DNA from: an uncultured Methanoregulaceae archaeon
Lineage (GTDB): Archaea; Halobacteriota; Methanomicrobia; Methanomicrobiales; Methanospirillaceae
NCBI GenBank assembly: GCA_963705255.1
Contig: OY970061.1
Span: 1,696,001-1,760,000, forward strand
Reading direction: 5' to 3'
DNA length: 64,000 nucleotides
The notes beneath the pieces were generated by a model. That model did not search any database. It saw only the letters and a list, made by a program, of their open reading frames with translations, and was not told the DNA's origin. The translations under genes and the position numbers were made by a program. Shown in pieces: positions 9,880 to 64,000 of this stretch. Each line of letters opens with the position of its first letter. The stretch's first letter is position 1.

Positions 9880-9995
9880 TAATCGACTAAACGTAAGTCC
9901 AGAAAAGTGCAGTACTGGTTACTGACTCTCTGTAATCCCAAAGCCATGCCTGAGGCAGTGCGGTGTCGCACGTCGGACTTACATCTGTCAGCACA
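9880..9995 (-). ncRNA. Putative S15 ribosomal protein leader (S15-Methanomicrobia type)
   Basis: 5' UTR of rps15 with a long closing stem GATGTAAGTCC...GGACTTACGTT upstream of the GGAGG RBS; this leader class is described in Methanomicrobia. Confidence 0.65.
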
Positions 9996-10266
9996 TGTTA
10001 AAAGTGCTGTCGTACTATTGGCGGCGGAGGGATAATAAGGGTATGGGTGGGGTGGTTGGGGCGGGAGGAAGGCAGCCCGGCACCATATCGGGAAGCAGCA
10101 GCGCGAACCGGTCTTCCTTCTGAACTGCCTGAATCATGCCGCAGATTCACCGGCCGTTCCCCGACTCGTTCGCATCTGCCTGATCGTTTTCCTCATTCGA
10201 TAATTATTTCCGTGATCCGAGTAACTACCCTCACATATATCAGCCGGCAGCCAGCACAGGAGCAGA

Positions 10267-20845: not shown

Positions 20846-21172
20846 GACTTACTCTCTCCCTGAAAAATAACTGTAGTCGAAGACTACGTCTTCTCCAGCT
20901 CTTGCTTTCCTTCGAAAAGTAATCGCTCCTTAAAATGCCCAGTTTGGCAATCGGAGCCCGATCTGAGAGGTCGGTTTTTGGAGGGTCGCGTTTTTTCGCG
21001 AATTATAGAACAGTGATTTCGAGATAAGGCTGTATTGGGGTTATTTTTCTGATTTGAGGGGCATTTCAGCCTCTGAAAAACGTCTAATTGTTGCCTTTTG
21101 GATGATCCGGGAGCCGGGATCCTGTGGAAAAGGCCGTCCGGGGAAATGGCAGGGGGTGGGATCTGTGTCCGG
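20846..21172 (+). repeat. Dispersed ~300 bp repeat, copy 1 (55 bp insert at 20873-20927)
   Basis: Shares AAAAATAACT, CCCGATCTGAGAGGTCGGTTTT, AGTGATTT.GAGATA.GGCTGTA and GATCCTGTGGAAAAGGC with copies 2 and 3. Confidence 0.9.
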
Positions 21173-23144: not shown

Positions 23145-23464
23145 TACCGTCGACGTGACCCCCCACCCCCTTTTCCGGGGTGGCCTCGACTTACAATCCC
23201 CGTGAAAAATAACTCCTCAATTCAGCCCCCTTTTGGCAAAATACGCCCGATCTGAGAGGTCGGTTTTTGGATAGTCGCACTTTTTGGCGAATTACAGCCC
23301 AGTGATTTTGAGATACGGCTGTAATGGGGTTATTTTGCTTATTTGAGGGATATTTTGGCCCCTGAAAAATGTCTCTTTATTGCCTTTTGGACGATCGGGG
23401 AACTTGGATCCTGTGGAAAAGGCTGGCCGGGGAAATGGCGGGGGATCCCGGATCTGGGGTTCGG
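23145..23464 (+). repeat. Dispersed ~300 bp repeat, copy 2 (no insert)
   Basis: Colinear with copies 1 and 3; begins TACCGTCGACGTGA, matching the last codons of the 62271-62742 ORF. Confidence 0.9.
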
Positions 23465-61136: not shown

Positions 61137-61478
61137 CTAATCCTGATCCCGGAACAGCGCCGGGTTCTGCCTGCGGATCCACCAGCGGCGGGCGAGCACA
61201 ATTCCCACAACCACAAGGACGATTGCCACGGCACCGATGATAATCGAACTCACCGGGAGCCCGCAAGAACCGGCCGGTGCCGGTGCTGATGCCGGAACTG
61301 CGGTGGTCTCCGTAGTTACGGGAACCGTGGTCCGGGCAGTTGTCGGGTTCTGCAGGTGCAGGTTTCCGGCCTGGGTTACTGAATCCCCGGCACAGGTGTC
61401 GGCATCCTTTGCAGAAACTCCCGATATGAGCACGATGACGCAGACCAGGATTACCAAACTTATTCCGGAGACTTTCAT
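61137..61478 (-). CDS. Small T-rich membrane protein with RRWWIRRQNPALF tail
   Basis: Signal peptide, T/P-rich linker, TM helix, basic tail. Confidence 0.7.
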   Translation of the reverse strand: MKVSGISLVILVCVIVLISGVSAKDADTCAGDSVTQAGNLHLQNPTTARTTVPVTTETTAVPASAPAPAGSCGLPVSSIIIGAVAIVLVVVGIVLARRWWIRRQNPALFRDQD

Positions 61479-61519
61479 AGTATACCGGTAAGCGGATTTC
61501 GGTATCCGCCACTTAATGT

Positions 61520-61582
61520 TTCTAACGCGATCGTCTACCGGTCAGGGGTCCGGTAGAGAGTTGCGTTAGAATCGTTATATAT
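61520..61582 (+). promoter_or_regulatory. 52 bp imperfect palindrome followed by a TATA box
   Basis: TTCTAACGC...TCTACCGG..CCGGTAGA...GCGTTAGAA, then TTATATAT at 61575. Confidence 0.65.
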
Positions 61583-61603
61583 CGGGTAACGAAATTCCAA
61601 TTC

Positions 61604-61957
61604 GTGGACAGCCGGGGGGTTGTCCCGAAAAGAAATGATGGGTTCTCCAAGCGACGAACTTCGTTGAACCCGGTCCACCCGCAGGCATGTGATCATTATC
61701 GTAAATTCTTATGAGGATTTTCCTGTGTCCGGGTTGACAGCAAAGGAAGTGATAGCATAAACTTCACATACGGAAAGCAGAACAAAACTGGCGGTGTCCG
61801 GCAGGATATCGTTCTGGTTAACGAAGGAGAGCGGCCACATACACCTGACCGGGTACTCCGGAAGACGGAGATTCTCGGCACGGGCATCCGGTCATCCTAC
61901 AGGAAAAAACCGGTGAAACCGGGTGGGGATGATGATGGCAATTAGGAGAGCCGCCAG
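61604..61957 (+). ncRNA. Candidate large structured non-coding RNA/leader of unknown family
   Basis: Starts ~25 nt after the TATA box; many local and long-range complementary segments; no credible ORF. Confidence 0.5.
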
Positions 61958-62004
61958 TGAATCGGCCGGCAGAAATCAGCCCGGGAAGCGGAGGCGGGCA
62001 CAGA

Positions 62005-62274
62005 ATGCCGAAGAGTAAATCCGTGACTGAATCTGGTATTCCGCTCTATCTCCTGCCCTGGGCAATCGCACGGCAGATCACCCGGATCGGGGACTCGGTG
62101 TACCGCATCAGCGTGAAGAGGACGCACTGGCACCACTACAACGCCTCGGTCCGGACGAAGACGCTGCCCCGCGAGCTCGCGCCGGGCAGTCTCGCCGGAT
62201 TCTCGCTGGCCACACCGCCGGACACCGGCAATCGCGGGATGGCGACAGGGGCCACCGGGGGAAGATCCGGATGA
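62005..62274 (+). CDS. Small basic hypothetical protein
   Basis: GGAGG RBS; ATGA overlap with the next gene. Confidence 0.6.
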   Translation: MPKSKSVTESGIPLYLLPWAIARQITRIGDSVYRISVKRTHWHHYNASVRTKTLPRELAPGSLAGFSLATPPDTGNRGMATGATGGRSG

Positions 62275-62742
62275 CACGCGGAAGGCCGCCGGACCAGGCG
62301 CTCAAAGAAGCAAAGGCCATCGCACGGCGGCAGGGAAAGCTCTGCGAGAATACCCGGGGACGGGGCCTGCTGTACGACTTCGCCATCCACCTCGCGTTCC
62401 TGACGATCTACATCCAGGTCCGGCGGATGAAGACGGCTGCCGAGACCGCGGACGACATCCTCTCCGTGTGTGCCCGCGACATCGCACGGATCCGCCGGGT
62501 CCCGGCGACTGCCGTCCTCATCCGGGAGCTGTCGGCCCGGTCGCCGGCCGGGGCATGGCGGTACTTCCTCGGTACTCGACGACCTTCTCGTGGAGATCCC
62601 GGCCGAGGCTATGCCGGAGAACATGGCCGGCACCCGGCTGCTGCGGGAAGATGCACCCGGGCCGGACCGGTCGTCCGTGCCAGGAGGAGCTCCGGTGGTA
62701 AGGGGAGGCTACTACTGCCCGTTCATGGTACCGTCGAAGTGA
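62271..62742 (+). CDS. Degenerate PD-(D/E)xK (YraN/Hjc-like) protein, indel near 62571
   Basis: MTRGRPP...YDFAIHLAFLTIYIQVRR (D-x12-Q-x-R)...RELSARSPAGAWRYFLVLDDLLVEI after correction. Confidence 0.55.
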
Positions 62743-63162
62743 GCCCTCCCACATCCTTTTTTCAAGGGTTCTGGGAGATACAATCCTCCTCAAAAATAAC
62801 TCCTCAATTCAGCCCCCGTTTGCCGAAATAAGCCCGATTTGAAAGGTCGGTTTTCCGGGTATCGCGTTTTTTGGCGAATTACAGCACAGTGATTTTGAGA
62901 TAAGGCTGTATTGGGGGTATTTTGCTCATTTGGGGGGCATTCTAGCCTCTGAAAAATGTCTCTTTATTGCCTTTTGGATGAGCGATTGCTGCCCAATGGC
63001 GGCAGGAGGCTGGAGAATATTGAGGAGCATCAGACTCGAAAGAGGAGAAGACCGAAGGTCTTCGACTGAATGCCGGAGGCATTCTTCGAACGATGATCCG
63101 GGAGCTGAGATCCTGTGGAAAAGGCTGTCCGGGAAATGGGAGGGGGTGGGATCTGGGTGCTG
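62729..63162 (+). repeat. Dispersed ~300 bp repeat, copy 3 (115 bp insert at 62982-63096)
   Basis: Colinear with copies 1 and 2; insert flanked by a GATGA direct repeat. Confidence 0.9.
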
Positions 63163-63271: not shown

Positions 63272-63496
63272 TTACCCCTCGTCCGACGATGGCCCGTCCT
63301 TGTCTTCCTCGTACGTGAAGACGTCGTCGATCCCGACATCGAAAACATGGGCAATACGGTACCCGAGCTTCAACGACGGGCTGTACTTGTCCTTCTCCAT
63401 GGAGATGATGGTGTTCCGCGTAACTCCGACAAGCTCTGCGAGTTGCTCCTGGGTCATTTCGTGCTCGGCACGGAGCACGCGGATCCGGTTCTTCAT
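63272..63496 (-). CDS. XRE-family HTH regulator
   Basis: MKNRIRVLRAE..MTQEQLAELVGVTRNTI..EK.KYSPSL. Confidence 0.92.
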   Translation of the reverse strand: MKNRIRVLRAEHEMTQEQLAELVGVTRNTIISMEKDKYSPSLKLGYRIAHVFDVGIDDVFTYEEDKDGPSSDEG

Positions 63497-63512
63497 TGCA
63501 AGCCTTGTGTAG

Positions 63513-64000
63513 TTAGTATTTTCTGTTGTAATAGAGATAAAATGCTCCGAACGTTGCGAGGATTATGACGAGCATGCTCCCGACGGTCATCCCGACAAGG
63601 CCCCGGTTCTCGTTCTCCCGGTAACTCTCCCGGAGGTAGGAGCAGTAATCCATGGCTTCGGATTCATTCATCGCGTTGATGTTTTTGATCGTTGTGGACC
63701 GGATGAGGTTTTCCGGTTGTTCCGGGCCGCCCGGCGGGTAGAGGTTGATGGTCATGGAACTTGTCCCGTCAGCATTCGTGGATACTTTCCCGGTTATGGA
63801 CGGGGCGAGCGGTGCACTTACCACGTAGGAATACAGGATGACCGTGGCGATGGTCCCGGCGATCACCAAGACCTCAAGGGTGCGGAGCGCAGCCTTCGAC
63901 CGGATCCGGGCCGTCCGTTCATCTGCTATCACCCCGGTTACATTCTGGCGGCAGGCGAGGACGACGATGACCCCCAGGGGAATGGCGATGACGGGGACGA
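63513..64000 (-). CDS. DUF2178-like membrane protein, 5' end outside the window
   Basis: ADERT..I..KAA..TLEV; AFYLYY tail; paired with the XRE regulator. Confidence 0.75.
   Translation of the reverse strand, partial: VPVIAIPLGVIVVLACRQNVTGVIADERTARIRSKAALRTLEVLVIAGTIATVILYSYVVSAPLAPSITGKVSTNADGTSSMTINLYPPGGPEQPENLIRSTTIKNINAMNESEAMDYCSYLRESYRENENRGLVGMTVGSMLVIILATFGAFYLYYNRKY

Follow-up and report, generated by a model that had tools for sequence, protein, structure and literature searches.

Among known leaders, the bacterial cyclic di-GMP-I (GEMM) riboswitches are present in multiple copies upstream of genes encoding secreted, pilus and surface proteins, the 5' untranslated regions (UTRs) of E. 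coli ompA and of S-layer genes carry stabiliser hairpins, and translational riboswitch platforms as well as RNA thermometers act by sequestering the Shine-Dalgarno (SD) sequence. Additionally, the vsp, vlp and vsa lipoprotein families of Mycoplasma are built from conserved cassettes of a 5' UTR and a signal peptide. Archaea have so far yielded few structured cis-regulatory RNAs, and to our knowledge none of them is tied to secreted proteins. The present analysis concerns an RNA element in a stretch of 64,000 nucleotides, hereafter the window, that covers positions 1,696,001 to 1,760,000 of contig OY970061.1 (GenBank assembly GCA_963705255.1) of an uncultured Methanoregulaceae archaeon. A preliminary description made from the letters of this stretch had proposed a large structured non-coding RNA, either a novel scaffold or a switch-like leader, at positions 61604-61957 of the window. 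The element is real and apparently undescribed, but it had been drawn too large: the supported unit comprises positions 61602-61744 and forms the 5' domain of a predicted mRNA leader. This domain belongs to a large family with many copies, which goes beyond what the reading of a single sequence could show.

The motif shares with the GEMM riboswitches the occurrence of many copies per genome in the 5' leaders of genes encoding extracellular proteins, and this arrangement of copies in front of exported-protein genes suggests a set of exported proteins that answers to a single signal. It differs from them by the absence of a sequence or structure match in Rfam, by its fold of three serial hairpins and by giving no indication of a signalling ligand. 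As in the ompA and S-layer leaders, a stable hairpin is predicted a few nucleotides from the 5' end of mRNAs for exported proteins; these stabilisers, however, are single-gene elements, whereas the motif represents a multi-copy family with two more conserved hairpins and conserved loops. The layout of the SD-sequestering riboswitches and thermometers, in which a 5' strand and the SD sequence compete for an anti-SD strand that is rich in pyrimidines and lies at the foot of a hairpin just ahead of the start codon, is likewise found in the motif, although it has no Rfam likeness to them and is archaeal, multi-copy and tied to genes for secreted proteins. The Mycoplasma cassettes resemble the motif loci in that the genes of a tandem array combine almost the same upstream region and signal peptide with divergent mature proteins. 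They depend on a single promoter around which the DNA inverts or slips, whereas the motif copies show RNA covariation; each copy also has a TATA box of its own, which does not correspond to a single promoter moved by inversion and a recombinase, and recombinase genes were not searched for.

With respect to known RNA families, the 4227 models of Rfam 15, a set that includes RNase P, SRP, group I and II introns, OLE, GOLLD, HEARO, ROOL, riboswitches and DUF3800 motifs, were searched against the whole window. The only match at the gathering threshold was the S15-Methanomicrobia ribosomal protein leader (RF03137) at positions 9932-10008 on the reverse strand (70.3 bits, E 7.9e-11), away from the flagged stretch. 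Like the motif, this structured 5' leader consists of serial hairpins and is confined to one lineage, the Methanomicrobia, but it is single-copy, autoregulates one ribosomal protein gene and is unrelated in sequence. At E <= 10, positions 61400-62300 returned only Pinc at chance level (16.6 bits against a gathering score of 60), and seven other copies of the motif returned at E <= 1 only sR55 (20.4 bits), located outside the motif. The preliminary description had seen no signature of RNase P, SRP or a group I or II intron, and the Rfam scan of the flagged stretch bears this out for all Rfam 15 families at their gathering scores. The motifs of one earlier survey are reportedly held in Rfam, which gave no match. 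No description of the motif was found among the texts covered by a full-text literature search, and the main text of PMC5737381, taken apart from its supplementary motif list, contains no mention of Methanoregula, Methanomicrobia or signal peptides. By kind, the motif is a predicted structured cis-regulatory 5' leader that lies outside every named family.

Architecture and covariation of the three-hairpin motif

The homology of the window to other loci begins exactly at position 61604 and mostly stops near positions 61727-61745. A covariance model with 34 base pairs, termed R1, was built from an alignment of 33 copies, and the hairpins H1, H2 and H3 of the window's copy are listed in Table 1. 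When 60 copies were aligned to the model, 94.0% of the cells were paired and 19 of the 34 pairs showed changes on both sides, a number that was reached by none of 500 shuffled alignments (6.6 +- 1.7) and that exceeded the slid controls (7-9). A second alignment of 24 distant copies, which also contains one stray reverse-strand row, was paired in 87.8% of the cells with both-side changes in 31 of the 34 pairs (shuffles 15.9 +- 2.1, 0 of 500 as high; slid controls 6-14). Compensatory changes among homologues thus exceeded the controls for positions 61602-61744, in alignments fitted to the model, and not for positions 61745-61894, which also belonged to the RNA as originally proposed.

Table 1. 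Features of the leader locus and its surroundings, in window positions
Feature	Position	Strand	Basis or remark
Divergent small signal/membrane protein gene, 113 aa	61137-61478	-	faces away from the leader
Inverted repeat, arms of 46 nt, 74% complementary	61496-61541 with 61550-61595	.	repeat search
Conserved upstream element CCGGTAGA-N6-GCGTTAGAA	61550-61571	+	conserved in alignments
TATA box TTATATAT	61575-61582	+	end of the right arm of the inverted repeat
Predicted transcription start, G after pyrimidine	61604	+	~25 nt past the TATA-box centre; homology begins here
Conserved three-hairpin leader motif, ~143 nt	61602-61744	+	covariance model R1, 128.2 bits
H1, 5'-terminal hairpin GGACAGCC/GGUUGUCC with 2-3 bp extension	61602-61628	+	MFE fold, covariation
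H2, long hairpin GGGUUC...GAACCC with inner stem	61640-61671	+	MFE fold, covariation
H3, long irregular hairpin ACCCG-CA-GGCAUG...UGUGUC-CGGGU (window's copy)	61673-61738	+	MFE fold, covariation
Extension of the long-leader class (class B)	61745-61894	+	alignments of long leaders
Hairpin E2, 10 bp	61790-61799 with 61804-61813	+	long-leader alignment
Hairpin E3, CUCCG-GAAGA-CGGAG	61856-61860 with 61866-61870	+	long-leader alignment
Variable 3' part of the leader	61895-62004	+	z 0.02; holds the SD site
SD site GGAGG	61990-61994	+	upstream of the ORF1 ATG at 62005
ORF1, 89 aa (MPKSKSVTE...)	62005-62274	+	downstream of every long-leader copy examined
ORF2	62271-62831	+	overlaps ORF1 by ATGA; homologues of 110-158 aa
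First T6 run after the predicted start	62757-62762	+	T-run scan

The hairpin H1 starts 2-3 nt from the predicted 5' end. In the 60 copies 97.1% of its cells were paired and 6 of its 10 pairs had changed on both sides, and in L073, which stems from a third family, H1 takes the fully compensated form GGAGAUC/GGAUCUCC. Both-side changes were recorded in 8 of the 11 pairs of H2, which in the family at large is (GGAC)GGGUUC...GAACCC(G)GUCC and the loop of which reads CGACGAA in many Methanoregula copies, including that of the window. The 5' block of H3, GCCCGUAGGCAUG, represents the most conserved part of the motif across the order, and the 3' base strand of this hairpin is CCUCC in the common class and resembles an anti-SD sequence. 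In the motif, unpaired invariant blocks adjoin covarying stems. Independent minimum free energy (MFE) folds of four copies from three families (the window's copy, a paralogue from its own genome, a copy of 38% G+C from a second family and one from a third) yielded the same three hairpins, with z-scores of -2.96, -3.12, -4.24 and -3.24. Moreover, G-U is the commonest pair at two positions of the 60 copies, and model R1 scored reverse-strand hits with 18.8-31.9 bits versus 37.6-165.6 bits for forward hits; together with a z-score of only -0.88 for the reverse strand of positions 61602-61744, these data indicate that the fold is strand-specific.

The folding energy of the interval was likewise uneven along its length. 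The whole 354 nt on the forward strand have an MFE of -125 kcal/mol and a z-score of -2.60, with 1 of 100 dinucleotide shuffles as good (reverse strand: z -0.91, 17 of 100 as good). The expectation that the RNA folds better than shuffled sequences held for this interval as a whole and for its 5' part, positions 61602-61744 (z -2.96, 0 of 200 shuffles as good), and failed for the last 110 nt, positions 61895-62004, which are at chance level (z 0.02); the intervening positions 61745-61894 gave a z-score of -2.41 (reverse strand -1.82). All 24 pairing words of the preliminary description were located where it had placed them or within 1-2 nt, and their fate was followed in 16 homologous leaders of the long class to which the window's copy belongs. 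The words GGACAGCC/GGTTGTCC pair at every pair in all 16 leaders, GTGGAC/GTCCAC is kept in 14-16 of them, GGGTTC/GAACCC in 8-16, and GGTGTCC/GGATATC as well as CTCCG/CGGAG in 11-15. The outer stems are weak (CAGAAC/GTTCTG 7-15, TGACCGG/CCGGTCA 6-13), and CATCCTAC/GTGGGGATG and CCGGT/ACCGG sit in a stretch that is absent from 4-6 of the 16 leaders. Neither of the two long-range pairings is conserved, since TTTTCCTGT/ACAGGAAAA pairs in 4-12 leaders (3-4 gaps) with zero compensatory change and CTGGCGG/CCGCCAG in 1-8 (7 gaps). These counts therefore indicate that the local 5' hairpins are real and conserved and that the global fold of 354 nt is not.

The leader as a coding sequence was rejected, as it contains no long open reading frame (ORF) and the copies differ by 1-nt indel steps. 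An ATG in the loop of H3 is in frame with the downstream ORF in some copies only, and a GUG-AUA-GCA-stop mini-ORF in the extension is lost in 4 of 20 homologues.

Genes behind the motif and its distribution in Methanomicrobiales

In most copies, 8-31 nt separate the end of the motif from an SD site (GGAGG), behind which the ATG of an ORF encoding a signal peptide is located; these SD sites are strong, and A-rich spacers flank them. A downstream-gene rule that combined an SD-like word with a hydrophobic N-terminus, starting between -12 and +60 nt from the motif end, was satisfied by 49 of 59 copies and by 17 of 20 further distant copies. Of the ten copies that failed it, eight are the other long leaders, one has only a weak SD site and one seems to be disrupted. 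Methanoregula copies share a nearly constant signal peptide (M..K..VVLLALLLAAMAMVPMVSA); it is different in sequence in other families, in which the association of the motif with secretion is kept. A Pfam scan of 20 mature proteins yielded three Peptidase_C39_2 (C39-like), one Reprolysin-type and one DUF6345 protein, with the remainder below the Pfam cut-off. This diversity of the proteins does not match an autoregulatory protein-binding leader, which is expected to precede the same gene family in all copies. Among 48 pairs of copies with at least 85% leader identity, 37 showed no detectable similarity of the mature proteins, and the leader is thus a module kept before unrelated exported proteins. 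An RNAalifold analysis of 41 extended sequences detected no pairing between the leader and the signal-peptide-coding region; the only structure that it recovered there was a local hairpin within the Leu/Ala-rich part of the coding sequence. In genome G050, the leaders L014 and L037 have in common a private insertion of 11 nt, AGGAGAAAACC, between H1 and H2 and yet have different mature proteins downstream, and L049, a leader from a different genome, shares 97% identity with L014; as judged from these sequences, the pattern hints at an exchange of the 5' module between genes.

A minority class departs from this arrangement, as 9 of the 60 aligned copies, that of the window among them, run into an extension of ~260 nt after the motif and then into two genes, ORF1 and ORF2, in place of a signal-peptide gene. 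The genome of the window (2.6 Mb) contains 8 full-length R1 matches with 128-166 bits, and three near-full copies of the long leader other than that of the window are 89-92% identical over positions 61506-61913, with ORF1 ~82% conserved there.

At E <= 1e-4, 61 of the 108 Methanoregula genomes scanned contained R1 matches. Single genomes had as many as 26 of them and the total exceeded 350, a minority of which are weak reverse-strand hits. When the scan is restricted to genomes with a completeness of at least 90% and a contamination of no more than 5%, 33 of 50 contained a match. Across the order Methanomicrobiales, 24 of 151 sampled genomes match R1 and five of six families are represented (13/29, 1/20, 4/12, 2/30, 3/30 and 0/29 genomes per family). 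The copies occur in tandem arrays. An exact 22-mer of H1 was found in 41 stretches, 37 of which belong to Methanoregula, Methanoregulaceae or Methanomicrobiales assemblies. It occurs once each in four bacterial-labelled assemblies (L120, Myxococcales; L122, Draconibacterium; L127, Acidimicrobiia; L136, Chromatiaceae), which may represent chance matches or mis-binned contigs, and viral contigs contained no exact match to it. The motif is abundant, old in that it spans at least five families, and well defined by covariation, so that it could enter Rfam and help to annotate metagenome-assembled Methanoregula genomes. Since the genes that it marks in these methanogens of peat and wetlands form a coherent set, with exported peptidases and uncharacterised surface proteins as products, it also provides a handle on the co-ordination of the extracellular proteome.

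Proposed function of the leader and rival explanations

The sequence comparisons indicate that the motif most likely functions as a cis-acting leader controlling translation or mRNA stability. In the reading that we favour with moderate confidence, the locus probably specifies an mRNA leader whose first ~143 nt constitute an undescribed cis-acting motif of the Methanomicrobiales that would combine protection by H1, a gate formed by H3 and a trans-acting factor. At the extreme 5' end, H1 would protect the mRNA from 5'-end-dependent decay, in the way in which 5' hairpins protect the transcripts of bacterial envelope proteins. H3 would serve as a translational gate, with its CCUCC-like 3' base strand pairing either with the 5' strand of H3, which leaves the SD site free, or with the SD site, which blocks it. 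The balance of this gate may be set by a trans-acting factor common to these secreted-protein genes, for which a protein recognising the conserved H2 and H3 blocks is the most likely candidate. In the window's class, the extension would bring an anti-SD/SD-mimic hairpin of its own (CUCCG/CGGAG) before the real SD site of ORF1 (CGGAGG).

The H3 5' strand (..GUAGGC.. or ..GGAGGC..) competes for the same CCUCC-like strand as the SD site, and this predicted competition is the layout of an SD gate. The anti-SD/SD duplex had a mean energy of -6.83 kcal/mol in 66 copies, compared with -6.26 +- 0.17 after permutation of the partners (1 of 500 as low) and -4.64 +- 0.24 with shuffled anti-SD sequences (0 of 200). 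Moreover, variants of the two strands are matched, among them CCACC/GGUGG, CCUCCGU/ACGGAGG and CCUCCGG/CUGGAGG. In the folding ensembles the SD site was mostly paired, with a mean unpaired probability of 0.24.

Several observations weigh against the proposed gate and leader. The transcription start and the existence of the RNA itself are both inferred, and the covariation counts overstate the case because the model guided both alignments and because the copies are related to one another, as paralogues or otherwise. The extension makes up most of the interval originally proposed, and its covariation did not exceed the controls: the consensus helices of 16 long leaders were paired in 87.7% of the cells with both-side changes in 5 of 30 pairs, against 3.5 +- 1.1 in shuffles (105 of 500 as high) and 0-6 in slid controls. 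The permutation margin of the anti-SD/SD match is small, and relatedness also acts on it. Furthermore, 38 MFE folds revealed no single partner of the SD site, which paired with the coding region in 19 cases, with the motif in 15 and with the spacer in 3 and was free in 1. H3 is far more stable than an anti-SD helix of 5-7 bp, so that a switch would need a trigger. In the signal-peptide codons, conservation reaches 0.54-1.0 even at third positions and ends at the cleavage site, which could reflect homogenisation at the DNA level instead of RNA function. Finally, the link to secretion is not universal, because the gene downstream of the long leaders, that of the window among them, encodes a small protein that is not secreted.

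A doubtful but possible extension of the gate is a secretome regulon, in which a riboswitch-like motif would recognise either a small molecule with a signalling role or a regulator dedicated to it, and the H3/anti-SD gate would co-switch the translation of dozens of secreted proteases and surface proteins in Methanomicrobiales; if true, it would be the first RNA element of such kind known for archaeal protein export genes. That the motif is a riboswitch proper, with H1-H3 as the aptamer and a metabolite or a signalling nucleotide as a ligand that shifts either the balance between H3 and anti-SD or the GUGGAC/GUCCRC pairing and thereby switches the secreted-protein regulon, appears unlikely. 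The multi-copy occurrence (up to 26 per genome), the invariant unpaired blocks beside covarying stems and the anti-SD/SD arrangement would suit such a device, as would the alternative pairing of GUGGAC with GUCC(C)RC, which is mutually exclusive with H1 and with the GGAC/GUCC extension of H2 and for which 51-60 of the 60 copies retain the potential. In this pairing, however, only one of the two sides varies, distant copies lack H1 and the H2 loop or do not conserve them, which is unusual for an aptamer core, and a ligand is not indicated, the downstream genes having export and not a metabolic theme in common. A passive expression module, in which a stable 5' hairpin and a structured leader only raise the half-life and translation of abundant secreted proteins, is quite unlikely as well: it would leave unexplained why the H2 loop and the H3 5' block are conserved across families and why anti-SD and SD variants are matched, although it would agree with the position of H1 2-3 nt after the predicted start, with the strong SD sites and their A-rich flanks and with the MFE fold, in which a closed H3 leaves the SD site without a dedicated partner.

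It is very improbable that promoter, leader and signal peptide form a DNA-level cassette that recombination or gene conversion spread and homogenised among arrays of surface-protein genes and whose RNA fold is incidental. Such a cassette would account for the tandem arrays, for leaders 85-97% identical before unrelated mature proteins (37 of 48 pairs), for conserved synonymous positions of the signal peptide that end sharply at the cleavage site and for the 11-nt insertion private to L014 and L037 of one genome with their different proteins. It would account neither for both-side pair changes above shuffled and slid controls and G-U pairs that make the fold strand-specific nor for an architecture that is kept at 38% G+C and ~50% identity in other families, and the presence of an own promoter on every copy makes promoter-swapping unneeded. 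Hardly any credence is given to a stand-alone scaffold RNA, the first reading of the preliminary description, in which long-range pairings hold positions 61604-61957 together as one large non-coding RNA. The z-score of the whole interval, the absence of long ORFs and indels that are not multiples of three are in line with it, but only ~143 of the 354 nt are comparatively supported, the long-range pairs are not kept, the 110 nt at the 3' end fold at chance level, and two homologues are devoid of ~100 nt. Additionally, no terminator-like T run precedes the ORFs, an SD site and an ATG follow directly, and in most copies the 5' domain alone stands before other genes. The second reading, a switch-like leader, agrees with the conserved TATA box upstream, with the absence of an oligo-T run before the end of the operon and with the SD site and ATG at positions 61990-62007, and the outcome is narrower than what had been proposed, namely a conserved structured RNA of ~143 nt and not of 354 nt.

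Locus organisation and the long-leader class

Positions 61604-62004 constitute a 5' untranslated stretch of ~400 nt before the two-gene operon of ORF1 and ORF2. The geometry of the TATA box, the absence of a T run of at least five residues between positions 61604 and 62757 in a sequence scan, the SD site with its ATG and the ATGA gene overlap therefore point to a leader of this length on a two-gene mRNA, and most likely leader, ORF1 and ORF2 form one transcript in this order. The TATA box is located 22-29 nt upstream of position 61604 and is conserved, with an A/T content of 79-100% from -27 to -21, counted from model position 1, that reaches 100% at both -25 and -24 (58 of 58 copies); transcription most likely starts near position 61604. 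Counted from this predicted start, the motif lies on the sense strand between the promoter and the SD site with the start codon. The upstream element in Table 1 may comprise a transcription-factor site and an element like the B recognition element. The inverted repeat that includes it represents a mirrored promoter region between the leader on the forward strand and the divergent gene on the reverse strand. Its left arm together with the start of the divergent gene (61450-61538) was found again at four other sites in a genome island at 2451-2463 kb. Termination at oligo-T runs is established in archaea, and the T6 run at positions 62757-62762 is likely to be the terminator of the transcription unit.

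The extension begins with a near-invariant block, GGAAGUGAUAGCAUA, at positions 61745-61759. An RNAalifold analysis of all 20 long leaders recovered only H1, H2 and the base of H3 besides a 2-bp stub in the extension, which is, by its alignments, a lineage-specific addition to the leader with weak structural support. In the variable part that follows, positions ~61914-61961 are missing from the closest paralogues. Two leaders of another genome (L010 and L020 of genome G092) have ~100 nt deleted between two CGGAG repeats; this deletion fuses the E3 3' strand to the SD site of ORF1, and E3 itself is therefore predicted to sequester the SD site there. Four further leaders (L011, L023, L088 and L093) form a sub-class that diverges past the GGAAGUGUUAGCAUA block. 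They contain an extra ORF of 66 aa in the extension (sequence taken from L011), followed by a distant ORF1 homologue with 33-38% identity.

The families of ORF1 and ORF2 are not represented in Pfam, NCBIfam or PHROGs, where the best matches had E-values of 0.21-0.35. For ORF1, a protein atlas search gave no usable match, and an AlphaFold2 model with a beta-alpha-beta-beta arrangement (predicted local distance difference test, pLDDT, 70.8) had no fold match below E 0.08. The model of ORF2 (pLDDT 83.7) showed weak matches to archaeal Hjc in the fold search (E 4e-3, TM ~0.5), and the atlas leads were only unnamed archaeal clusters and clusters bearing Hjc or Mrr_cat; this is weak evidence that the ORF2 homologues may adopt a restriction-endonuclease/Hjc-like fold. 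The window's ORF2 aligns with its homologues only up to position 62567 (residues 1-99), and it appears to be frameshifted near position 62570, because the C-terminal ..ILDD.LIEI.. of the homologues lies in another frame (ORF 62470-62742).

At the T-rich end of the operon begins a repeat of ~170 nt (62720-62900) that matches no Rfam family at the gathering threshold. Nine other copies with 74-84% identity are present in the genome, two of them inside the window at ~20955-21024 and 23145-23313. Further downstream, positions 63272-63932 encode on the reverse strand a 74-aa HTH_3 (Xre-type) regulator paired with a DUF2178 membrane protein. Three of the copies in the window's own genome are located within an island (L143, 2450001-2470000) whose genes specify DUF6884, Schlafen AlbA_2/HATPase_c_4, DUF3800, YhcG PD-(D/E)XK nuclease and GNAT proteins, a content that looks defence- or accessory-like.

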